Shown: positions 6,092 through 64,000 of the stretch, piece by piece | Numbering within the stretch: position 1 is the stretch's first letter | Layout: every line of letters starts with the position of its first letter | Assembly: GCA_964635715.1 (NCBI GenBank) | Contig: CAZWNZ010000001.1 | Location: forward strand, 138,358 to 202,357 | Origin: an uncultured Gammaproteobacteria bacterium | GTDB lineage: Bacteria > Patescibacteriota > Microgenomatia > UBA8517 | Direction: 5' to 3' | Length of the DNA: 64,000 bases | Notes under the pieces: generated by a model | What the model was told of the DNA's origin: nothing | What the model saw: only the letters and a program-made list of their open reading frames with translations | Databases searched by the model: none | Position numbers and translations under genes: made by a program

Positions 6092-6185
6092 AAGACTATG
6101 GCTCTACTTCGCTAGAGCTTCGAAGAGCACTTCTTCGATAGGAGTGCTGCGCGCTTCGAAACTCCAACAAGGTTGGAGTGAAGAA

Positions 6186-6550
6186 GTGGAGACGGCGGGA
6201 ATCGAACCCGCGTCCGAAAATACTATAAACAATACTTCTACAAGCTTATTAGATCTTTTTTTATTTTCTTTTAATTTAAGTCGATCTACAAACAATCAAA
6301 AGTAAGGCTAATTTAGTTTCAGCTACTAGCTATCAGCCGTTAGCTATTAGTTATATCCCGGATTGGTTTACACCCTTTTGATCCGGCCGAGATTCAGATC
6401 TAAGGACGCAACTTAAGCGTACGCTACTGCGTAGTTAGGTTGGGCTTGGAATAAATTCCTAGCTTTTATTTTTTAATCCCTTTTGACAAGTGATGATCAA
6501 ACTTGGCTTGCTGTATTGTAAAGAGCTCTCCGTCGAAACCGATCGTCCCC
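6186..6550 (-). ncRNA. ssrA: tmRNA (SsrA)
   Basis: The reverse strand reads 5' GGGGACGATCGGTTTCGACGGAG... and ends ...GGACGCGGGTTCGATTCCCGCCGTCTCCAC. The acceptor stem is GGGGACG/CGUCUCC with a G3:U pair. An internal frame reads ...AQPNYAVAYA followed by a stop, which fits a tag peptide. smpB is adjacent. Confidence 0.8.
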
Positions 6551-6618: not shown

Positions 6619-7065
6619 TTATTTGTACTTATTGGTACTTATTTTCAACTCTCTTTCAATATCACGATTGATATCGTGGCGTCTAATACTTTCCTTCTTT
6701 TGGAACTTGCGCTTGCCTTTACCAAGCTCAAGATAAATCTTAATTAGACGGCCTTTATTATACACTCTAAGAGGAACGATCTGCAATTTTTTCTGCTTCA
6801 TTTTTGTGATTAGTGATAATATTTCAGATCGGTGTAAAAGGAGTTTTCTCATGCGTGTCGAGTCATACTTTTGGATGCCCTGTGCAGGTATATTTGCATT
6901 AATCAGGTAGGCTTCGTCTTTCAAAATTCTAATTGCTGCCTGAGAAATATCAGCTCTTCCTTCACGCACAGATTTGGCCTCGGCTCCTAAAAGAGAAACG
7001 CCTGCTTCAACACCCTCACCTGTAAGTTCGTATTCAAATTTAGCCTTTTTGTTAACTATTTTCAT
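6619..7065 (-). CDS. smpB: SsrA-binding protein SmpB
   Basis: MKIVNKKAKFEYELTGEGVEAGVSLLGAEAKSVREGRADIS...RMRKLLLHRSEI matches SmpB, and the gene sits next to the tmRNA. Confidence 0.9.
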   Translation of the reverse strand: MKIVNKKAKFEYELTGEGVEAGVSLLGAEAKSVREGRADISQAAIRILKDEAYLINANIPAQGIQKYDSTRMRKLLLHRSEILSLITKMKQKKLQIVPLRVYNKGRLIKIYLELGKGKRKFQKKESIRRHDINRDIERELKISTNKYK

Positions 7066-7792: not shown

Positions 7793-8155
7793 ATTGAAAT
7801 CGATTTATATAATGATATAATCCCTTCCAGAGCTGGAAATTCGGAAAACCCTGAGAGGTGGCTAGTTTGATCATCACGCCTTGTCTGACAATTGCGTCAG
7901 TACATATATTTAAAGTGATGGAACAAGCTCAAGGTTCGATTCCTTGTAGGGTGAAGAGGGTTTTCTAAAGACGCGCAGAATAGGTGGGAGGCTATGATAG
8001 TGTGATGAAGGTCACAAAGGAGCCGTCAATGAAATACTACCCCCTTTAGTTTTAAGAAATTATAAAAAAATACCCGATCACGTTTTCCAGCTCCACCCTC
8101 TTTCTCTCCAATTAAGCAGTAATTACGTTCCATTTTTGATATAATGATCGAGCTT
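7793..8155. other. 360-nt non-coding region with tRNA-like T-arm and a 10-nt long-range complementarity (candidate structured RNA)
   Basis: Contains GGTTCGATTCC (7938-7948). GAGCTGGAAA (7833-7842) is the exact reverse complement of TTTCCAGCTC (8073-8082). No ORF longer than the spurious track entries. Confidence 0.3.
8137..8145 (+). promoter_or_regulatory. Extended -10 element TGaTATAAT upstream of tRNA-Ser
   Basis: TGATATAAT lies 10 nt before the tRNA 5' end. The same style occurs upstream of tRNA-Asn (17767-17775) and tRNA-Ile (62899-62907). Confidence 0.5.
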
Positions 8156-8239
8156 GGAGGATATGCCGAGCGGTTAAGGCAATTGTTCGCTAAACAATGT
8201 CGCGCAAGCGACCGACAGGTTCGACTCCTGTATCCTCCG
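8156..8239 (+). tRNA. tRNA-Ser (type II; anticodon probably GCU, C at position 33 is unusual)
   Basis: GGAGGAT...Ser-type D-arm GCCGAGCGGTTAAGGC, long variable arm, T-arm ACAGGTTCGACTCCTGT, acceptor ATCCTCC plus G. CCA is not encoded. Confidence 0.7.
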
Positions 8240-8244
8240 CCCAT

Positions 8245-8326
8245 GGTGGGCGGGCAGGACGGTAATGCGCGGGTCTTGAAAACCCGTGGGAGCAATCCCT
8301 AACAGGTTCGACCCCTGTGCCCACCG
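8245..8326 (+). tRNA. tRNA-Ser(UGA)
   Basis: GGTGGGC..., anticodon loop CTTGAAA, long variable arm, T-arm ACAGGTTCGACCCCTGT, acceptor GCCCACC plus G. Confidence 0.8.
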
Positions 8327-8345
8327 CACTTCTTTGTTTTATCAA

Positions 8346-8359
8346 CTTCTGTTATAATA
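8346..8359 (+). promoter_or_regulatory. Conserved promoter-like box CTTCTGTTATAATA (extended -10), copy 1
   Basis: An identical 14-mer recurs at 10056-10069. Here the TATAAT ends 6 nt before the ATG at 8365, which implies a leaderless mRNA. Confidence 0.5.
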
Positions 8360-8364
8360 CGCAT

Positions 8365-8913
8365 ATGGAATCTGCCTCCAATCCTGCCGATAGCACATTA
8401 AATGGGGAACCACAGGCAGTGGTCGTAAGAAGAGAAGCAGAACGTGATATTATCACCTGGGTAGCTCCAGCAAGACCTTTTAAAAGGTATGGTAGAAAAT
8501 TTTATGTCACCGTTTTTTCCATAATCGGAATTATCGGTATAATTTTTTTTATAGCTGAAGGCATTATGCCAGTGATACTTTTAATTTCCCTAACCTTTTT
8601 ATTTTATGTTTTGTCTACTGTTCAGCCTGAAAATATTGAATATAAGATAACAAACAGAGGGGTTAAAATTGCAGGTAGAGAAACACCTTGGCAAAGTTTG
8701 GTCAAATTTTGCTTCTCACAGAAATCCGGGAGTGATGTTTTGGTATTTGAGATGATTCCACTTCCCGGTAGAATGGAACTTGTCGTAAAGTCTGAAATTA
8801 AAGAAAGTCTCAGAAAGGAAATCTCCGCGTATATTCCATACGAGGAAATTCCACCCTCCTTTTTAGACAAAATTTTAAACTGGATTGTTAAAAAACTACC
8901 TGAGAACGATTGA
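8365..8913 (+). CDS. Hypothetical 2-TM membrane protein
   Basis: The ORF-track start at 8317 overlaps tRNA-Ser. The ATG at 8365 (MESASNP) follows the -10 box. Two central hydrophobic helices. Confidence 0.5.
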   Translation: MESASNPADSTLNGEPQAVVVRREAERDIITWVAPARPFKRYGRKFYVTVFSIIGIIGIIFFIAEGIMPVILLISLTFLFYVLSTVQPENIEYKITNRGVKIAGRETPWQSLVKFCFSQKSGSDVLVFEMIPLPGRMELVVKSEIKESLRKEISAYIPYEEIPPSFLDKILNWIVKKLPEND

Positions 8914-8936
8914 GAGTCTTACTCTGCAAAGTATTA

Positions 8937-9008
8937 GCGCCTGTAGCTTAATGGATAGAGTTGAGCCTTGCGGAGGCTTAGGTCCCAGTTCAACTCTGGG
9001 CAGGCGCA
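8937..9008 (+). tRNA. tRNA-Arg(GCG)
   Basis: GCGCCTG TA GCTTAATGGATAGAGT (Arg-type D-arm), anticodon arm GAGCC-TTGCGGA-GGCTT, T-arm CCCAGTTCAACTCTGGG, acceptor CAGGCGC plus A. Confidence 0.7.
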
Positions 9009-9013
9009 CTCAA

Positions 9014-9095
9014 GGTGGGTGGGCGGGACGGTAACGCGTTGGTTTCGAAAACCAATTCTCGCAAGGGATAACAAGTTCGACTCTTGTACCCACCG
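9014..9095 (+). tRNA. tRNA-Ser(CGA)
   Basis: GGTGGGT..., anticodon loop TTCGAAA, long variable arm, T-arm CAAGTTCGACTCTTG, acceptor ACCCACC plus G. Confidence 0.8.
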
Positions 9096-9110
9096 CTAAG
9101 AATTAAAAGT

Positions 9111-9563
9111 ATGAATAGTAAAAATAATCAGCAAATTTTAATAGGTGGAGCCATTGTTTTTAAAGACAATCGTGGCAAACGCCAATTTCTTTTGGTGAAA
9201 ACAAAAGAAGATGGGGATTGGGAAATTCCCAAAGTTACCGTTAGACGTGGAGAATCTTCTGTGCGTGCCGTTATAAGACTTACAGGAGAACAAGGTGGAA
9301 TTACTGCCAGAGTATTAGAAGAAGCGGGAAGATATTCCGGAAATGCCATTATCAACGGAAACTCCATGCCTCAAAAACATTATTATTATTTAATGCTTCA
9401 AAAGGGGGGATCAAGCGAATTGATAGGCTTCCAGAATTTTAAGTGGATGGACGCGGTTAACGTAAACAAAAAACTGGATTCGAAAAAAGAGAAAGAAATG
9501 TTTAAGTCGGCGCGTGACGTATTAAAAGAGTGGGAAACAACACACAAGGTAAAAACATACTAA
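9111..9563 (+). CDS. NUDIX-fold protein with degenerate Nudix box
   Basis: GESSVRAVIRLTGEQGG loosely resembles GX5EX7REUXEEXGU. The ORF-track start at 9084 overlaps the tRNA; the ATG at 9111 is used. Confidence 0.5.
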   Translation: MNSKNNQQILIGGAIVFKDNRGKRQFLLVKTKEDGDWEIPKVTVRRGESSVRAVIRLTGEQGGITARVLEEAGRYSGNAIINGNSMPQKHYYYLMLQKGGSSELIGFQNFKWMDAVNVNKKLDSKKEKEMFKSARDVLKEWETTHKVKTY

Positions 9564-10042
9564 CCCGTGAGTTCTCTTCCGGAGGCGTGGTGTACAAAAG
9601 ATCAGGAAATAAAATATTTTGGTTGATTCGAAAAACAATGGTGAGTGACTTATTTCCTGAGTGTTATTGGATGCTGCCCAAGGGCTGGTTGGATGATGCC
9701 GGAGACGGAATGCCTGGCCCAATGGCTTCAGGCAGGAAAAAAGCGGATGAAAAAACACTCCAGAAAACAGCAATAAGAGAAGTCGAGGAAGAAACGGGTG
9801 TTAATGCGAAAATTGTAGGCAAAATCGAAACAGCAAAATATTTTTACACTCATCCACAGAGAGGGAGAATATTAAAATTTGTTACATTTTATCTTATGGA
9901 ATGGACCCGTGATTTACCTGAAGGTTTTGACGGAGAAACGTCAGAAATTGACTGGCTTCCGTTTGAAAATGCATCGAAAAAGTTGTCTTTTGATAAGGAA
10001 AGAGAAGTTTTAAGTAACGCTTACAAATTATTACCTCATTAA
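9530..10042 (+). CDS. NUDIX hydrolase
   Basis: Canonical Nudix box GRKKADEKTLQKTAIREVEEETGV. Confidence 0.75.
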   Translation: MGNNTQGKNILTREFSSGGVVYKRSGNKIFWLIRKTMVSDLFPECYWMLPKGWLDDAGDGMPGPMASGRKKADEKTLQKTAIREVEEETGVNAKIVGKIETAKYFYTHPQRGRILKFVTFYLMEWTRDLPEGFDGETSEIDWLPFENASKKLSFDKEREVLSNAYKLLPH

Positions 10043-10055
10043 TCCAATCAAGTAG

Positions 10056-10069
10056 CTTCTGTTATAATA
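10056..10069 (+). promoter_or_regulatory. Conserved promoter-like box CTTCTGTTATAATA, copy 2, upstream of tRNA-Ser(GGA)
   Basis: Exact repeat of the 8346-8359 box. TATAAT ends 12 nt before the tRNA. Confidence 0.5.
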
Positions 10070-10080
10070 TGCCTACAATT

Positions 10081-10165
10081 GGAGGAGTCGCCTAGTGGCC
10101 TATGGCACGGGTTTGGAAAACCCGGACTCGCAAGAGTCTCGTGAGTTCGAATCTCACCTCCTCCG
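10081..10165 (+). tRNA. tRNA-Ser(GGA)
   Basis: GGAGGAG TC GCC TAGTGGCCTAT GGC, anticodon arm CGGGT-TTGGAAA-ACCCG, long variable arm, T-arm GTGAGTTCGAATCTCAC, acceptor CTCCTCC plus G. Confidence 0.8.
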
Positions 10166-10349
10166 CAAATAAAATTTGCGTTGGATCTGCGATTCGGTAC
10201 TGGGGTATAAGTGTGTACGGCGAATCTCACTTCCTCCGCTCGTCAGAGCAAGACTTTGTCGCTTCATTCCGACCATGTCGGAATGTTCGCTGCTTTTAGT
10301 CTGCTCTTCCTCTCAAAATTGCTTAGCAATTTTGTTGACACAAGAACAC

Positions 10350-17430: not shown

Positions 17431-17769
17431 ATGCCCAATAAAACCCGAACAAAAGATACTAGAACCTATCGTGATAGGGCGCATTATTTAGTTCTTGCAG
17501 TTGCCAAAAGAAGACGAAAGTTAAAATCCATGGCGGTGGAATTAAAAGGGGGTAAATGCCAAATTTGTGGATACAATAAATATGTTGGGGCGTTGTCTTT
17601 TCATCATTTAGATGAAAAAAGTAAATCATTTGATTTATCAACAAAAGGTTTAACAAGAAGTTGGGAAAAAACAAAAGAAGAAGTCAATAAATGTATATTG
17701 GTTTGTGAAAATTGTCACAGGGAAATCCATGGGGGATTAATAAAGCTTCCAGTTAAGCTCAATGTTTGA
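17431..17769 (+). CDS. HNH endonuclease
   Basis: CQICGYNKYVGALSFHHLDEK...LVCENCHREIH is an HNH/zinc-finger nuclease signature. Confidence 0.7.
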   Translation: MPNKTRTKDTRTYRDRAHYLVLAVAKRRRKLKSMAVELKGGKCQICGYNKYVGALSFHHLDEKSKSFDLSTKGLTRSWEKTKEEVNKCILVCENCHREIHGGLIKLPVKLNV

Positions 17770-17792: not shown

Positions 17793-18069
17793 TCCCCGGT
17801 AGCTCAGCGGTAGAGCGGATTCCTGTGATTTCTTAGCAGCTCTTAAAGGAAACTTTAAGATGAAAACTGGGAGAATTGCGTGAAGCCCCTGTCATTTTGA
17901 CGAGGTAACCCGCAGCCGAGCCCTAATAAAAATTAGGGAAGGTTCAGAAACTATGTACCCAGACACCTCGTTTATTCTGTAAACAAGTGCAAGATATAGT
18001 TCCGCGTCCCACAGAAATGTGGGGGAGCGAGTAAGAATAAGGTCGCTGGTCCGAATCCAGCCCGGGGAG
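17793..18069 (+). tRNA. tRNA-Asn(GUU) interrupted by a 205-nt intron in the anticodon loop
   Basis: 5' exon TCCCCGG TA GCTCAGCGGTAGAGC G GATTC CTGT (17793-17826). 3' exon TAA GAATA AGGTC GCTGGTCCGAATCCAGC CCGGGGA G (18032-18069). Spliced anticodon loop is CUGUUAA. U1-A72 and discriminator G are typical for bacterial tRNA-Asn. Confidence 0.7.
17827..18031 (+). ncRNA. Group I-like self-splicing intron inside tRNA-Asn
   Basis: Exon ends in U and intron ends in G. Exon CUGU can pair with intron GCAG (P1 with a U-G wobble at the splice site). P2 hairpin CTCTTAAAG-GAAA-CTTTAAGA. P3 pairing GACGAGGT/ACCTCGT. GCCGAGCC and GAAGGU core-like segments. Terminal hairpin CCCACA-GAAA-TGTGGG. Size matches the small IC3-type tRNA introns. 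Confidence 0.6.
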
Positions 18070-18106
18070 CACTTCGGCAAGCTCAGTGCAAGCACAATTT
18101 TTGACA

Positions 18107-18403
18107 ATGAACAAGGACTGGTATGTTTATATGCTTCTTTGTGATCAGAAAACTTTTTATGTTGGGATTACTCCAGATTTATTAGAAAGAATGAGAAAAC
18201 ATGGGGACAAGCTGTCGTTTTTTACTAAAAAGTTTTCTGATCTGAAACTGGTTTATTGCGAAAAATATCGAAGCAAATTTGATGTTGCAAAAAGAGAAAA
18301 ACAAATAAAAGGTTGGAGTAGAGCAAAGAAGCAAAAGTTGATAAATGGAGAATTAGGTGTTAATACTTGTACTGAGATTGCCAAAGCTCTTTTGGGCGGA
18401 TGA
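18107..18403 (+). CDS. GIY-YIG nuclease-domain protein (YhbQ/UPF0213-like)
   Basis: MNKDWYVYMLLCDQKTFYVGITPDLLERMRKH. Starts 38 nt after the tRNA-Asn 3' end. Confidence 0.75.
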   Translation: MNKDWYVYMLLCDQKTFYVGITPDLLERMRKHGDKLSFFTKKFSDLKLVYCEKYRSKFDVAKREKQIKGWSRAKKQKLINGELGVNTCTEIAKALLGG

Positions 18404-59625: not shown

Positions 59626-61959
59626 ATGTTAACCGCAGAAGTAAATTATTCAGGCATTATTGTGGCTGTTGTTTTGGTGACTGCCGCAGTTTTCTCCTTG
59701 GTTCTTTTGGGCTATTCACTTTTTATTTATTTTAAAAACAGAGATAGGGAAAAAAGATCTTTAGATTCGGTACTTTTACAGGTTGCTCTTCCCAGAAATA
59801 ACGAAACAAAAATCGATGTGATGGAACAACTTTTTGCCAGTATTTATTCAATTAAAAAAGGAGGATGGAAGCAAAAGTTCTCCATTCAGCCAACAATTTC
59901 CTTTGAAATAGTAGCTAAACGTGAGGACATACGTTTCTATGTTTGGGCTCCAACAAAGCTTAAGGATTTGGTTGAAAAACAAATAAATGGTGCATACCCA
60001 GAAGCTGAAATTTTAGAAGTTGATGAATACAATATTTTTGACGAAAAAGGCAAAGTTGCTTACAAGTCATTTCAATTAGGGAAAAGCAATTTTTACCCAT
60101 TAAAAACTTTTAAAGATCTGGCTACCGATCCGATGCTTGGAATTACTTCTGCCTTAGCCAAAATGGGAGAGTCGGACGCAGCCGTTATCCAAATTGTTTT
60201 AACTCCGACTGAAAGCGATTGGCAAAAGGCAGGCGGGAAATTTATATCTGATATCAAAAAACAAGAGAGTGATGCTGAACATGCAAAATTCTCAACATCC
60301 GGCAAAACTTTGGACGCGATTGAAGGAAAAGTCTCCAAACCAGGGTTTGAAACATCAATAAGAATATTGGCCGTTTCGGAAGACGAGGAAACTGCAAAAA
60401 GCACAGTAGCCAATATCAGTAGCTCTTTTGCTCAATTTGCGGGAGACCTAAACAGTCTTAAAAGTAGAAAGATTTATAGGAAAGCTTCGTTTATGGAGGA
60501 ATTTCTTTATCGATATCAACCGATGTTTAATATTTTTAAAAATCATGTGTCAATATTAAATTCAGAAGAGTTGGCTTCAATCTATCATTTTCCGAATAAG
60601 CAGGTTACCACGCCGCATATTTTTTGGTTGAATGCTAAAACCGCTCCTGCGCCAAGTCAAATTCCAACAGAAGGCCTTTATCTTGGAATGAGTAATTACA
60701 GGGGAATTAAAAGACCAGTTTATTTAAGCAACAAAGATAGAATGCAGCATATCTACATTATTGGAAAGACGGGAGTTGGAAAATCAGAGCTTCTTAAGGA
60801 TTTGATATTGCAAGATATTAGGGCAGGTAAGGGAGTCTGTTTTATGGATCCCCATGGTGATGCAGTGGAAGATATTTTAAAACTTATCCCTCCCGAAAGG
60901 GCAGAAGATGTTATCTACTTCAATCCAAGTGATGTCGAACGTCCTATTGGAATGAATCTTTTGGAGGCGAGAACCGAAGATGAAAAACATTTTGCTGCGA
61001 CATCAATAATAAACCTCATGTACAAACTTTTTGATCCTTATAAAACCGGAATAGTCGGGCCACGTTTTGAGCATGGAGTTAGAAATGCCATGTTGACAGT
61101 CATGAGTGAGCCTGGAAATACTTTTGTGGAAATTATGAGAGCCATGACGGATTCTTCGTATGTTCAAAAACTTCTTCCCAAAGTTACTGACCCAATTGTC
61201 AGGCGCTATTGGACTGATCAGATTGCTCAAACTTCCGATTTCCACAAATCAGAAGTTTTAGACTACACAGTTTCCAAATTTGGGCGTTTTGTTACAAACA
61301 AGCTTATAAGAAACATAATAGGACAATCTCAAAGTTCTTTTGACATGAGAAAAGTTATGGATGAAGGAAAAATTTTACTTATTAATCTAGCCAAAGGATC
61401 TTTGGGAGAGGAGAATAGCAACTTTTTGGGGCTCCTTCTTGTTCCAAGAATATTGATGGCAGCTATGAGTAGGTCAAACTTGGCAAAAGAACAAAGAAAA
61501 GATTTTTACTTTTATGTTGACGAGTTCCAGAATTTTGCCACACCCGATTTTGCAGTAATTTTGTCTGAAGCTAGAAAGTATGGGTTAGGACTTTGTGTTG
61601 CTAATCAGTTTATCGGTCAGGTTGAGGAAGAGGTTAAAAATGCAGTTTTCGGAAATGTCGGAACTCTGATCTCCTTTAGAGTAGGTGTAACAGATGCGAA
61701 CTACTTACAACATGAATTTACACCAACTTTTGGTGAAGATGATTTATTAAATGTAGAGCGTTATCATTCTTATTGTAAAACTATTGTTAATAACGAACCT
61801 GTTCCGCCATTCTCCATGGATATGAGTAAGGACATGAATAAGCAAAAAGCCGAAGAAAATGAGCGTGTGGCGGAGATAATTAAAGAAATGAGCAGACTTA
61901 AATATGGTAGAGATGAAAAATTGGTTGAAGCGGAGATAACAAGAAGAAGCAATCTATAA
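59626..61959 (+). CDS. TraG/VirD4/TraD-family (type IV coupling protein-like) membrane-anchored P-loop ATPase
   Basis: N-terminal TM, Walker A YIIGKTGVGKSELL, DPHGD, Walker B YFYVDEFQNF and ARKYGLGLCVANQ. Confidence 0.55.
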   Translation: MLTAEVNYSGIIVAVVLVTAAVFSLVLLGYSLFIYFKNRDREKRSLDSVLLQVALPRNNETKIDVMEQLFASIYSIKKGGWKQKFSIQPTISFEIVAKREDIRFYVWAPTKLKDLVEKQINGAYPEAEILEVDEYNIFDEKGKVAYKSFQLGKSNFYPLKTFKDLATDPMLGITSALAKMGESDAAVIQIVLTPTESDWQKAGGKFISDIKKQESDAEHAKFSTSGKTLDAIEGKVSKPGFETSIRILAVSEDEETAKSTVANISSSFAQFAGDLNSLKSRKIYRKASFMEEFLYRYQPMFNIFKNHVSILNSEELASIYHFPNKQVTTPHIFWLNAKTAPAPSQIPTEGLYLGMSNYRGIKRPVYLSNKDRMQHIYIIGKTGVGKSELLKDLILQDIRAGKGVCFMDPHGDAVEDILKLIPPERAEDVIYFNPSDVERPIGMNLLEARTEDEKHFAATSIINLMYKLFDPYKTGIVGPRFEHGVRNAMLTVMSEPGNTFVEIMRAMTDSSYVQKLLPKVTDPIVRRYWTDQIAQTSDFHKSEVLDYTVSKFGRFVTNKLIRNIIGQSQSSFDMRKVMDEGKILLINLAKGSLGEENSNFLGLLLVPRILMAAMSRSNLAKEQRKDFYFYVDEFQNFATPDFAVILSEARKYGLGLCVANQFIGQVEEEVKNAVFGNVGTLISFRVGVTDANYLQHEFTPTFGEDDLLNVERYHSYCKTIVNNEPVPPFSMDMSKDMNKQKAEENERVAEIIKEMSRLKYGRDEKLVEAEITRRSNL

Positions 61960-62047: not shown

Positions 62048-62890
62048 ATGAATATCGGAATTGTTGGCAACGGTTATGTAGGTCATGCAACAGGAGCAGG
62101 TTTTGCGACCAACCCGGAAAATAAACTTTTCATCTACGACAAATTCAAGGAAAGCCCAAACACTCTCGATGAAGTAATTGAAAATTCAGAATTTATTTTT
62201 ATTTGTGTTCCAACACCAATTTTTTCCGATTATTCGGGAATGGACATGAGTATAGTCGAGGAAGTGATCGGAGAAGTAGCGGAAAAAATTAAAACACAGG
62301 GGAAGATAATTATTATTAAATCAACTTCTCTCCCGGGAACTACAAGAAAGATGGTAGAAAAATACCCACATGTTGATTTTGCCATGAATCCGGAATTTTT
62401 AACTCAAGCCAAAGCAGACGAGGATTTTTTAAAACCATATAGAACAGTGATTGGGTGCGAAAAGCCTGATGTGGGGGAGAAAGTTAAAAGTCTTTACGAA
62501 ACAATTCTACCTTCCAACCAAAGATATATAATTACCGACACTGTCAGTGCCGAGGTAATCAAGTATATGAGTAATCTCATTTTGGCAAGCAAAGTTCTTC
62601 TGGCAAACGAATTTTATGAATTGTCTCAAAAAGTTGGAGCAAATTATGTGGATGTGCAAAAAGGGGTTGAGGCTGATCCTAGGATCGGAACACATCTCGG
62701 GGTTCCGGGTTCCGATGGCGATAGAGGTTTTGGAGGAGCATGTTTTCCAAAAGACACGATTGGTATTTTGGGTTTAGCCAAAAAACTGGGTGTTGATATG
62801 AGTGCGCTCCAAGCAGTTTGGGATAAAAACCTGAAGATTAGAAAAAATAGGGATTGGGAAGAAATGCCTCAAGCTTTCAAGAAAAAATAA
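62048..62890 (+). CDS. UDP-glucose/GDP-mannose dehydrogenase-family protein lacking the C-terminal domain
   Basis: IGIVGNGYVGHATGAGF Rossmann motif and catalytic GGACFPKD. At 280 aa it is shorter than the roughly 390-440 aa typical of the family. Confidence 0.6.
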   Translation: MNIGIVGNGYVGHATGAGFATNPENKLFIYDKFKESPNTLDEVIENSEFIFICVPTPIFSDYSGMDMSIVEEVIGEVAEKIKTQGKIIIIKSTSLPGTTRKMVEKYPHVDFAMNPEFLTQAKADEDFLKPYRTVIGCEKPDVGEKVKSLYETILPSNQRYIITDTVSAEVIKYMSNLILASKVLLANEFYELSQKVGANYVDVQKGVEADPRIGTHLGVPGSDGDRGFGGACFPKDTIGILGLAKKLGVDMSALQAVWDKNLKIRKNRDWEEMPQAFKKK

Positions 62891-62917
62891 GCCCAAACTG
62901 GTATAATAGCCTCATCT

Positions 62918-62989
62918 GGGCTCGTCGTTTACCGGTAAGACATTACTCTTATAAAGTAAATACAGATGGTTCGACTCCATCCGAGCCCA
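62918..62989 (+). tRNA. tRNA-Ile(UAU)
   Basis: GGGCTCG TC GTTTACCGGTAAGAC A TTACT-CTTATAA-AGTAA ATACA GATGGTTCGACTCCATC CGAGCCC A. Extended -10 TGgTATAAT lies 10 nt upstream. Confidence 0.55.
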
Positions 62990-62993
62990 CAAG

Positions 62994-63082
62994 GGGTCTC
63001 TTATGTCAAAGTTTTGCATTGAGACGCGTTTTACAAATGCGATAAAGTCGACACGATAGTTCGATTCTATCCGGGACCACCA
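62994..63082 (+). other. Aberrant tRNA-like element with canonical T-arm, acceptor 3' strand and genomically encoded ACCA
   Basis: GATAGTTCGATTCTATC CGGGACC A CCA at 63055-63082. A candidate anticodon arm CGCGT-TTTACAA-ATGCG and a 13-nt variable region fit, but the D-region does not fold canonically and the acceptor pairing GGTCTCT/CGGGACC is 6 of 7. Confidence 0.3.
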
Positions 63083-63090
63083 AGTAGAAT

Positions 63091-63582
63091 ATGAATAGAA
63101 ATATTCTTAACACCAATTCAGGAATCTACCTGGGTTATGGTTACTTAATGCTTCCTCTAAATTTAAATATTTCTTCAAAAATAGAAATTGAAAACAAAAC
63201 GTTTTTCCCTAAAAAAGGATACCATGTAAGTTTGATTTGTCTCGAAAATCTGCCGAAACCCAATCAAGAAAAGATCTTAAATTTTGCCAAAAAATACCCA
63301 GTAGTGCTAAAAAGAATGACTGGGGTTTATCGATTAGTAATACAGGAGAATAATCAATCAATAATAGTTCGTATCCACCTCAAAGGATTAAAGAAATTAA
63401 TTACTGCTGTTAATAAACATTTCGGATATAGCCTTGTCTATCCACCAACCCACATAACTCTGTTTACCTTAAAAGGTCAGTATGGCATTGCAATAAATTC
63501 AAATAGTGAATATCGACAGTTAACTCACCAAATCAGCCCAAAAGATTCGCTAAGGTTAGCAAAGTCATTCAAACTAATTTAA
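63091..63582 (+). CDS. 2H phosphoesterase superfamily protein (LigT-like 2'-5' RNA ligase/cyclic phosphodiesterase)
   Basis: Two H-x-T/S-x motifs: YHVSLI and THITLF. Confidence 0.5.
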   Translation: MNRNILNTNSGIYLGYGYLMLPLNLNISSKIEIENKTFFPKKGYHVSLICLENLPKPNQEKILNFAKKYPVVLKRMTGVYRLVIQENNQSIIVRIHLKGLKKLITAVNKHFGYSLVYPPTHITLFTLKGQYGIAINSNSEYRQLTHQISPKDSLRLAKSFKLI

Positions 63583-63596
63583 AAAGTAATCGAAGA

Positions 63597-64000
63597 TTAA
63601 AGCTCGATTAAGGTTTGTTTCTTGCCGGGTTCGGTAATTTGGGCAAGCTCAAGATACCTTTCGGTTGTAGAAAGGCGCTTATGGCCCGAAACTTGAGAAA
63701 GAAGGACGATATCAACTCCGGCTTTAAGATTCTCAACAATAAATGTGGTTCTAAGATCATTTACTGAATAATTGGGGAGTTCTGCCCTTTGGACATATCT
63801 GGCAATAGAAGCTCTAATATTTCTAACAGCTAGTGGTTTTCCATTCTTACTGATAAAAACATATGGGGATTCTGCTTTTGGACGGATGTCTATGTAAGCG
63901 TTTAAGATATCGGAAGCCGGTTTATTAAGAGGGACGTTTCTTTCGGGTTGGGTTGCGTAAGCCTCTATTTTTAGAGAATCGCCCTTAATATTTTCAGATT
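63597..64000 (-). CDS. Tyrosine recombinase/integrase (XerC/XerD-like), C-terminal part (5' end beyond window)
   Basis: The reverse-strand translation ends ...LRTTFIVENLKAGVDIVLLSQVSGHKRLSTTERYLELAQITEPGKKQTLIEL followed by a stop. This includes the catalytic Arg, His-x-x-Arg and the nucleophilic Tyr. Absent from the ORF track because no start codon is in the window. Confidence 0.75.
   Translation of the reverse strand, partial: SENIKGDSLKIEAYATQPERNVPLNKPASDILNAYIDIRPKAESPYVFISKNGKPLAVRNIRASIARYVQRAELPNYSVNDLRTTFIVENLKAGVDIVLLSQVSGHKRLSTTERYLELAQITEPGKKQTLIEL

Follow-up and report, generated by a model that had tools for sequence, protein, structure and literature searches.

A probable broken copy of tRNA-Ile(UAU) at a recurrently disrupted tRNA locus beside a Xer-like recombinase gene in Microgenomates genomes

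Integration of mobile elements can leave partial tRNA genes, which are often annotated by mistake as additional tRNAs (van der Gulik et al. 2023, PMC9897764; Islander database, PMC4383910); in the documented cases the complete and partial tRNA copies are separated by 9–23 kb of element, its integrase included (PMC9897764). Other described systems include the tRNA-dependent lysogeny of mycobacteriophages (PMC10865867) and the disrupted tRNA genes of archaea (intron-containing, split and permuted), for which an integration model was proposed by Sugahara et al. (2012, PMC3293823). In the present study, a tRNA-like element located 5 nt downstream of an intact tRNA-Ile(UAU) gene was analyzed in a 64-kb stretch of DNA from an uncultured bacterium of the Microgenomatia (hereafter the window; all coordinates refer to it, and L-numbers denote loci of the compared assemblies). 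The analysis strongly favors the element being a broken, recombinant copy of tRNA-Ile(UAU), split between A35 and U36 by a 39-nt hairpin insert. Similar to the integration fragments, a 3′ part of a tRNA was duplicated near an intact copy, and tRNA finders build from it a low-scoring tRNA of the wrong isotype. In contrast to those cases, the copies were 5 nt apart, neither an element nor an element integrase was present, the copy started at the anticodon stem and carried a hairpin insert in the loop, and in related genomes the copies were tandem or nested, with the inner gene taking over.

The element and its parts were as follows.

62990–62994 (+): 5-nt spacer CAAGG between tRNA-Ile and the element, read from the sequence.
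62995–63082 (+): the tRNA-like element, 88 nt including CCA (sequence, Rfam, relaxed ARAGORN).
62995–63003 (+): GGTCT-CTTA, copy of the 5′ strand of the tRNA-Ile(UAU) anticodon stem and of loop bases 32–35; tRNA finders take it for the 5′ strand of an acceptor stem with U8 and A9.
63004–63042 (+): 39-nt insert with TTGAGAC (63019–63025) and the hairpin CGCGT-TTTACAA-ATGCG (63025–63041).
63043–63079 (+): tRNA-Ile(UAU) copy from U36 to A73 (TAA, AGTCG, ACAC, GATAG-TTCGATT-CTATC, CGGGACC, A).
63080–63082 (+): CCA 3′ of the discriminator, read from the sequence.

Once the 39-nt insert was taken out, the element could be aligned colinearly, from position 27 as far as the trailer, with the intact tRNA-Ile(UAU) genes, seven of which were compared. 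The 5′ piece (62995–63003), together with G62994 and T63004, read GGGTCTCTTAT, and the same 11 bases could be found in the anticodon arm of the tRNA-Ile of L044. While the 5′ piece matched the L044 allele, the 3′ piece belonged to an allele of the CGACT/AGTCG type, and the stem strands GGTCT/AGTCG paired at only three of five positions. The unit is regarded as recombinant because its two anticodon-stem strands do not match each other. The 3′ piece (63043–63079) was identical at 36 of 37 positions to the first unit of L028, and at 29 of 37 to the intact tRNA-Ile of L032 and L044. Furthermore, the motif ATAAAG-N11-GTTCGAYTC, in which ATAAAG combines the end of the loop (CU-UAU-AA) with the start of the 3′ strand of the stem, was common to true tRNA-Ile genes and to every broken unit; it also finds the true tRNA-Ile(UAU) of L031–34.

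The reading as a broken copy emerged from L028, in which the neighboring Xer-like recombinase is 95% identical. This locus carried three tandem units upstream of a gene for a four-helix-bundle protein; in each, a hairpin was followed by (G)ATAAAG and, 11 nt further on, by a T arm, with 7 nt and A ahead of CAA, CAT or CCA. At the site of the apparent anticodon arm, the hairpin was CATCGCG-AAA-CGCGATG in L028 unit 1 (7-bp stem, AAA loop) and CATTGCG-AAA-CGTGAT in L066. L026, the closest relative by the 163-amino-acid (aa) protein encoded downstream of the element (78% identity), had tRNA-Ile, a 39-nt spacer with AGGAG and the downstream gene, and no element. The cloverleaf look of the window element would be partly inherited, its T arm and 3′ acceptor strand coming from tRNA-Ile. 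The rest would be a coincidence, both in the UUUACAA of the hairpin loop and in the pairing of GGUCUC with GGGACC. The element is unable to decode.

The resemblance of the element to a tRNA was assessed with structure models and tRNA finders. The first-pass annotation of this DNA had described a tRNA-like element five nucleotides behind the tRNA-Ile, with a perfect T arm, acceptor 3′ strand and ACCA, and a poorly folding 5′ half. Its position was correct, with a length of 88 nt in place of the 89 nt given. The T arm GAUAG-UUCGAUU-CUAUC was indeed perfect, the strand CGGGACC, A73 and CCA were present, and the 5′ strand GGUCUCU formed 6 of 7 pairs with CGGGACC. The weak 5′ half was equally evident, as the best D stem (UCAA/UUGA) takes a 4-nt connector where two nucleotides are canonical and closes a loop, AGUUUUGCA, that has no GG, so that G18 and G19 are missing. 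With the Rfam tRNA model (RF00005), for which the gathering score is 29, the element reached only 22.6 bits, and a 20-nt insertion took the place of the D arm. ARAGORN, as suggested in the first-pass annotation, called the tRNA-Ile by default, whereas the element was called only at 95% thresholds, as an 88-nt tRNA-Val(tac). This was the sole additional call in the whole window at that setting, and 30 dinucleotide shuffles of the window yielded two such calls altogether; the resemblance is therefore considered inherited and not due to chance. On folding, no dominant cloverleaf emerged (minimum free energy (MFE) frequency 0.06, z −2.7).

These data leave very little probability for the element being an unusual functional tRNA, either tRNA-Val(UAC) or one resembling type II. 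In its favor, the relaxed call of tRNA-Val(tac) comes with A73 and with A35 and C36 as in valine tRNAs. The score below the Rfam gathering threshold, the missing G18 and G19 and the unstructured 13-nt "variable arm" speak against it, as do the missing anticodon-like loop in the homologous units and the missing element in L026. The UAC anticodon candidate does exist as a UUUACAA loop; it is supplied by the hairpin CGCGU-UUUACAA-AUGCG of the insert, where the L028 homologue has an AAA loop. A canonical tRNA-Val(UAC) was rejected on the sub-gathering Rfam score, the lack of a default ARAGORN call, the aberrant D region and an anticodon arm that is not conserved. The long variable region, which had raised the idea of a type II tRNA, did not hold up either: the 13-nt stretch AUAAAGUCGACAC had no viable stem-loop, it corresponded to tRNA-Ile loop bases 35–38 with the 3′ strand of the stem and a 4-nt variable loop, and the homologous L028 unit had no anticodon loop. 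Since no anticodon loop is conserved in the homologous units and L026 lacks the element, a functional tRNA-Val or type II tRNA is practically excluded.

The encoded CCA was absent from all six other tRNAs of the window. In the tRNA-Ile copies and fragments that were read in relatives, CA followed the discriminator in all and CCA in three sequences, the trailer at this position being CAA, CAT, CAG or CCA. As all related copies have CA after the discriminator, the CCA is a single base away from the usual trailer. The notion of the encoded CCA as a mark of a retro-copy or of foreign origin was weakened by the same trailers.

The element lies in a spacer with conserved borders, and its surroundings in the window were as follows.

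62048–62890 (+): gene resembling UDP-glucose/GDP-mannose dehydrogenase (UDPGDH; Pfam PF03721, PF00984), left border of the variable spacer.
62902–62915 (+): TATAATAGCCTCAT, a −10-like motif 5′ of the tRNA-Ile gene, read from the sequence.
62918–62989 (+): intact tRNA-Ile(UAU) without encoded CCA (ARAGORN, Rfam, fold z-score).
63091–63582 (+): 163-aa open reading frame (ORF), probably a 2H-type phosphoesterase, a lineage-specific cargo of the spacer.
63597–64000 (−): 3′ part of the Xer-like tyrosine recombinase gene (134 codons of 287 aa; Pfam PF00589), right border of the spacer.

Comparison of the same locus across relatives revealed that the spacer between UDPGDH, a conserved neighbor, and the Xer-like gene holds tRNA-Ile(UAU) in all of at least 10 related Microgenomates genomes, either alone or together with broken copies or other small cargo genes. 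Broken copies in or at the anticodon loop occurred in six lineages, tandem arrays included. A lone tRNA-Ile gene was present in L026 and L044, and a lone inverted one in L031–34 and L056–63. An intact tRNA-Ile with one to three broken units was found in the window, L028 and L052–54, and a tRNA-Ile nested in the anticodon loop of another in L045–50 and L051 (at least two lineages), with a looser arrangement in L066. At least six different intact tRNA-Ile alleles occupied this one locus, with compensatory changes in every stem, while the Xer-like proteins were 88–95% identical.

In L045–50, the outer tRNA-Ile was canonical in both halves and was broken after A35 or U36 by about 125 nt, the insert consisting of a complete, different tRNA-Ile(UAU) between complementary CGAAAAT/ATTTTCG, and then a hairpin. 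In L051, the outer copy was an ortholog of the intact gene of the window, slightly decayed, and the inner gene had 12-bp complementary flanks. An intact tRNA-Ile between a short outer 5′ fragment and a 3′ partial could be observed in L052–54 and L066. The break CTTA|TAA (A35|U36), with an ambiguity of 0–3 nt, was common to the window element, L028 unit 1 and the outer copies of L045–50 and L051, although a flanking T makes a break at 36|37 equally readable in some units. The partial copy of L066 was broken within one or two bases of A35|U36. Unit 2 of L028 and the partial copy of L052 instead had a hairpin in place of the 5′ loop half. In every unit the hairpin abutted the junction and stood after a motif resembling TTGAGAC/TTGACA; the stems varied in sequence and always paired. 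The MFE structures of the units differed and had no common cloverleaf, and the units of L028, L052 and L066 had no common acceptor-like helix of tRNA geometry.

The nested cases bear on two of the systems described above. The cases of tRNA-dependent lysogeny (PMC10865867) resemble the nested ones found here in that the target tRNA is not restored and the inserted DNA supplies a working tRNA. Those cases are whole prophages carrying integrases, in contrast to the roughly 125 nt found here (a tRNA-Ile with flanks and a hairpin) inside a gene of the same isoacceptor. The archaeal disrupted tRNAs are similar in that the break lies in or near the anticodon loop, fragments occur beside intact genes, and a mobile element has been proposed. 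They differ in being cut by the splicing endonuclease at a bulge-helix-bulge, mostly at 37/38, whereas the present tRNA genes are bacterial, with the break at 35|36, and the window unit has no 5′ exon. An intron-containing or split tRNA spliced as RNA, which shares the very low probability given to the functional-tRNA reading, could draw on the outer copy of L045–50, wholly canonical but for its insert, and on a tRNA gene with a group I intron in the window itself. Nevertheless, an exon would require an acceptor 5′ strand, a D arm and a matching stem, all of which are missing from the window unit. The break is at 35|36 rather than 37|38, and no group I core was found in the element.

The tRNA gene with an intron was observed at 17793–18070 (+), where the anticodon loop is split by a group I intron of about 205 nt (Rfam Intron_gpI, 60.9 bits, 17817–18024). 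It is flanked by an ORF for an HNH endonuclease (17431–17769) and a GIY-YIG-like ORF (18107–18403). The ARAGORN call of this gene as "Thr agt" is doubtful.

The first-pass annotation had noted that integrases next to degenerate 3′ copies of tRNAs typically mark attL or attR of integrated elements, and had proposed a possible integration site with the element extending beyond the window. The displaced 3′ copy of a tRNA and the locus of insertion were both supported, whereas no island or element integrase was found. The convergent XerC/XerD-like tyrosine recombinase at the window edge could be verified, its C-terminal 134 aa (63597–64000, minus strand) matching Pfam Phage_integrase at 7e-17. An independent assembly of 4,683 bp (L001), which also encodes the 163-aa protein, is 100% identical to the window across 2,489 nt and reaches 2.2 kb further, supplied the full protein of 287 aa with a SAM-like N-terminal domain (SAM_1 or SAM_4) and Phage_integrase. 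Over its full length it scored 149 (XerC), 143 (XerD) and 142 bits (XerA) with the NCBIfam models, all under the equivalog cut-offs, and it was likewise below the XerS cut-off. More than 6,000 homologues were found, more than 120 of them at 81% identity or higher (81–95% for the best 120) and nearly all 287 aa long.

In the 2.2 kb beyond the window, L001 carried DivIC and then a 225-aa helix-turn-helix (HTH) protein. The gene order in every fetched relative was 5′-3′ exonuclease, FtsH, tRNA-binding protein, class I aminoacyl-tRNA synthetase (aaRS), CAU tRNAs, DivIC and Xer, continuing past Xer with the variable spacer, UDPGDH and a T4 coupling protein. The Xer-like recombinase is thus a core syntenic gene and not the integrase of an element. 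The second att copy that had been predicted was not found, as the 28-mer of T arm and acceptor was present only once in the window (up to 3 mismatches allowed) and absent from L001 and from viral contigs. When the complete element was compared with the window and 26 loci by short-word BLAST, only chance 10–13-mers were returned, and blastn against 50,697 phage records returned generic T-arm matches only (E ≥ 0.08). The tRNA-Ile-type motif occurred in viral contigs only within ordinary phage tRNA arrays, and no transposase, integrase or phage gene was present among 40 small and medium ORFs of the window.

It is accordingly very unlikely that the locus is an attL or attR of an integrated element that reaches past the window edge and whose integrase would be this recombinase. 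In favor of this reading, the partial tRNA copy adjoins a tyrosine recombinase gene. Against this stand the DivIC, HTH, CAU tRNA, aaRS, tRNA-binding protein, FtsH and exonuclease genes beyond the window, in the same order in at least eight relatives, the missing second 28-mer in L001, the recombinase homologues of nearly constant length, and a fragment that copies tRNA-Ile and sits 5 nt from tRNA-Ile.

Single-recombinase Xer systems such as XerS/difSL have their site next to the gene, and integrative mobile elements exploiting Xer (IMEX), e.g., the CTX phage, use the Xer enzymes of their host. The locus resembles these systems in that the Xer-like gene is always adjacent, the site-like units form degenerate arrays, and hairpins occur at the junctions. 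It differs in having no terminus by GC skew, no recognizable dif-like 11-6-11 site, and XerC, XerD and XerS scores below the cut-offs. GC skew had the same sign on either side of the Xer gene in five relatives and throughout the window; the locus is therefore not the replication terminus or dif region, since the skew does not switch. The dif/terminus idea was rejected on this ground.

As separate observations on this family, VNDLRTTF was present in 119 of 120 homologues together with GH(K/R)RLSTTERY, and the Xer-like gene stood alone on the opposite strand amid a co-oriented block. The Asn of VNDLRTTF stands at the position that is occupied in XerC and XerD by the first His of HxxR. A protein of 212–226 aa with a transposase-like N-terminal HTH was found directly upstream of a tRNA gene (tRNA-Met with CAU, tRNA-Ile, tRNA-Gln) in four contexts (L001 3921–4598; L026 3–641; L022 582–1178; L028 2194–2874), and its gene could be a mobile or regulatory one associated with tRNAs. 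Two ORFs with type IV secretion system (T4SS) pilin domains were located at 240–1291 (−), and a TrwB/TraG-like coupling ATPase of 777 aa at 59626–61959 (+); they are kept next to UDPGDH in all relatives. This set looks like a chromosomal type IV-like apparatus common in genomes of the Candidate Phyla Radiation (CPR) rather than a plasmid.

The pattern at the locus could be explained by recurrent insertion or exchange of DNA in or at the anticodon loop of tRNA-Ile(UAU), between UDPGDH and Xer. In each event an intact tRNA-Ile allele would be kept or brought in, displaced or broken copies would accumulate beside or around it, and small cargo genes, here the 163-aa 2H-like one, would land in the same spacer. 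We infer site-specific or hairpin-dependent DNA insertion as the cause, and the acting enzyme can be named only as a candidate. One candidate is site-specific recombination that uses the palindromic anticodon arm and may involve the Xer-like enzyme encoded next to it; others are a hairpin-ended single-strand transposon of the insertion sequence (IS) type IS200/IS605 and homology-anchored illegitimate recombination of incoming alleles. For the IS200/IS605 type, the hairpins abut the right junction and insertion occurs after (C/T)TTA(T) with 0–3 nt of ambiguity, and no transposase was present among the 40 window ORFs.

The comparisons establish homology to tRNA-Ile, a break at a shared position, nested genes and conserved synteny, and they also show that no island is present. 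Several observations nevertheless weigh against regarding the element simply as a broken copy left to decay. At four-fold degenerate sites the Xer genes of the window and L028 were 47.5% identical, near saturation, and yet the 3′ halves of the units agreed at 36 of 37 positions; the inserts between the same two units differed by 15-nt and 6-nt indels. As the 3′ half was conserved despite saturated silent sites, the unit would be under constraint, subject to gene conversion, or spread horizontally or recently. L028 unit 2 and the L052 partial were almost identical across about 60 nt, and by contrast the outer copy of L051 decays ordinarily, including a T-stem mismatch. This non-neutral decay points to something that a pure dead relic would not predict. 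In addition, the 6/7 acceptor-like helix with the intact T arm and ACCA may have a role at the RNA level. No enzyme or mobile intermediate has been identified for the insertion process, the classic att layout of an island between a complete and a partial copy is absent, and the recurrent hairpin is accounted for by none of the explanations offered.

These points give some room to the possibility, clearly less likely than the passive scar, that half-tRNA and hairpin form a functional or mobile module. It may serve as the end or the attachment sequence for a small mobile DNA with hairpin ends, directed at the anticodon loop of tRNA-Ile(UAU) and able to bring along a replacement tRNA-Ile, or it may be a recombination site for the adjacent Xer-like enzyme, integron-like or IMEX-like. 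The agreement of 3′ halves at saturated silent-site divergence and the near-identity of L028 unit 2 and the L052 partial argue for it. So do hairpins of varied sequence that always pair and always abut the junction behind a TTGAGAC/TTGACA-like motif, tandem arrays of up to three units, nested inner tRNAs between complementary flanks of 8–12 bp, cargo that varies by lineage (2H, four-helix-bundle, receiver-like ORF), tRNA-Ile inverted in two lineages, and a tyrosine recombinase gene that is always adjacent. Opposed to this, no circular form or empty-site pair was seen for any single unit, no further copies of the hairpins occurred in the window or in the compared loci, and the short inserts had no target duplications or terminal repeats. 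No transposase was found in the 40 window ORFs, the Xer gene looks housekeeping, and there was no GC-skew switch at the locus. A multi-copy hairpin was tried and rejected, as CACGTTCC-N3-GGAATGTG occurred only in L028–30 and its 27 viral matches lay in a protein-coding gene family and were irrelevant. In its fullest form, which we hold only tentatively, the anticodon loop would be the attachment or homing site of a hairpin-ended module adjacent to Xer, which may carry its own tRNA-Ile, leaves half-tRNA units and brings in promoterless cargo. If the module reading were true, the window element would be kept by selection or spread horizontally instead of being a decaying scar. A dedicated mechanism would represent a new kind of element that targets a tRNA gene and rescues its own damage, and also a route for the movement of small genes in streamlined CPR genomes.

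The gene downstream of the element was examined as the cargo of the window spacer. No Shine-Dalgarno sequence precedes the 163-aa ORF, which begins 8 nt downstream of the CCA. Its 58 homologues were all from Microgenomates, and in 29 sequences of the family the two H-x-S/T motifs, H45-V-S47 and H121-I-T123, were invariant. The AlphaFold2 model had a predicted confidence (pLDDT) of 94, and its top Foldseek matches were enriched for 2H enzymes at weak scores (E ≥ 0.04, template modeling score (TM) 0.3–0.42). No match was obtained in Pfam, NCBIfam, PHROG or PDB sequences. A 2H phosphoesterase, as named in the first-pass annotation, is hence a plausible identity, drawn from the invariant HxS and HxT motifs and the predicted fold, though no profile matched.

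In relatives, the usual home of the 163-aa gene is between era and lon, and only in the window and L026 does it occupy the spacer of tRNA-Ile and Xer. Among 24 loci fetched by this protein, tRNA-Ile was upstream only in L026, and Xer, UDPGDH and DivIC were nearby in none; a linkage of the element to the gene was therefore unsupported by those loci. Other cargo in the spacer comprised the four-helix-bundle gene, a receiver-domain-like ORF and a 75-aa ORF, depending on the lineage. As the cargo genes differ between lineages, the spacer is viewed as a small-scale insertion hot spot.

Most homologues (L003–L021) carry TATTTTACCCTAAAA(C/T)ATG right at the start codon and diverge from era, so that their mRNA may be leaderless or nearly so. 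The window has the tRNA relic and AGTAGAAT in place of this sequence. It may be asked whether the element was co-opted as a signal for the processing or expression of the 163-aa gene, which we consider improbable. In one form, RNase P or RNase Z would release a minihelix of acceptor and T arm, bearing ACCA, from tRNA-Ile read-through, giving an mRNA with an 8-nt leader; in another, the insert and TAAAGT would act as a promoter. Co-option would fit the start of the ORF 8 nt past CCA with the AGGAG of L026 lost, the homologues elsewhere with TATTTTACCCTAAAACATG in a leaderless-type arrangement, the intact 6/7 acceptor helix and 5-bp T stem, and a promoter-like match of TTGAGA-18-TAAAGT. That match is within chance (one found, 2.3 expected), no dominant cloverleaf was obtained for the element, and the lack of a common acceptor-like helix in the units of L028, L052 and L066 also stands against co-option.

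The intact gene upstream of the element was called as tRNA-Ile(UAU) by default ARAGORN at 62918–62990, and the Rfam tRNA model gave 59.8 bits at 62918–62989. It has the anticodon loop CUUAUAA, as had been read earlier, and a fold z-score of −4.5, and is taken to be the working AUA decoder. Canonical tRNA-Ile(UAU) was kept in L026, L031–34, L044–54, L056–63 and L066. A near-identical allele of the window gene was present in L026 and, as the broken outer copy, in L051. The −10-like motif TATAATAGCCTCAT also preceded the tRNA-Ile gene or the broken outer copy in L044, L051, L052 and L066; it may act as a promoter.

Unmodified-UAU tRNA-Ile2 has been described in Mycoplasma mobile and a few other bacteria without tilS (Taniguchi et al. 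2013, PMC3575796). The present tRNA is similar in having UAU in the loop CUUAUAA, and here it was kept at the locus in at least 10 related genomes. The SGGxDS motif of tilS was absent from the 64-kb window, and two or three distinct CAU-anticodon tRNAs were located between aaRS and DivIC in relatives. Their positions were L031 5257–5520, L044 4284–4488, L045 4152–4467 and L028 2068–2140, and one of the CAU tRNAs had an odd D region (GCGGGGTAGTGTACAGTGCACG...).

Considered alone, the element belongs to an ordinary class, and the clade-wide pattern is an unusual variant. Full-text literature searches on tRNA integration sites, fragments, and disrupted or nested genes yielded no description of CPR bacteria in which tRNA genes are nested or serially broken. 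For annotation, the element provides a clear CPR case of a tRNA fragment made into a spurious tRNA-Val by relaxed finders, and its true content is visible only against relatives. The tRNA-Ile(UAU), possibly the sole AUA decoder in the clade, is a hot spot at which alleles are replaced, inverted, broken at one anticodon position and nested.

Similar structures were seen beside other tRNAs. In L011 (3560–3910), an intact tRNA-Glu(UUC) was located between two broken tRNA-Glu-like copies, upstream of a 2H homologue. The broken copies had an insert of about 66 nt right behind the anticodon loop; the inserts were about 90% identical and ended in the hairpin ATATGGGAG/CTCCCATAT. A comparable orphan 3′ half was present at positions 1–45 of L012. 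From these tRNA-Glu-like copies, the phenomenon may extend past tRNA-Ile. Within the window, an orphan T arm, CAAGG-TTCGATT-CCTTG, followed by TAGGGTG-A and preceded by the hairpin CTGAC-AATTGC-GTCAG, was found at 7877–7954 (+), about 200 nt upstream of a cluster of serine and arginine tRNAs. It was called by ARAGORN only at 90% thresholds ("Asn att") and has the look of another tRNA relic of this kind. The cluster itself (8155–10166) comprised four tRNA-Ser genes (GCU, UGA, CGA, GGA) and tRNA-Arg(GCG), interleaved with two NUDIX genes and without encoded CCA. A tmRNA at 6184–6550 (−) adjoined smpB at 6619–7065 (−).

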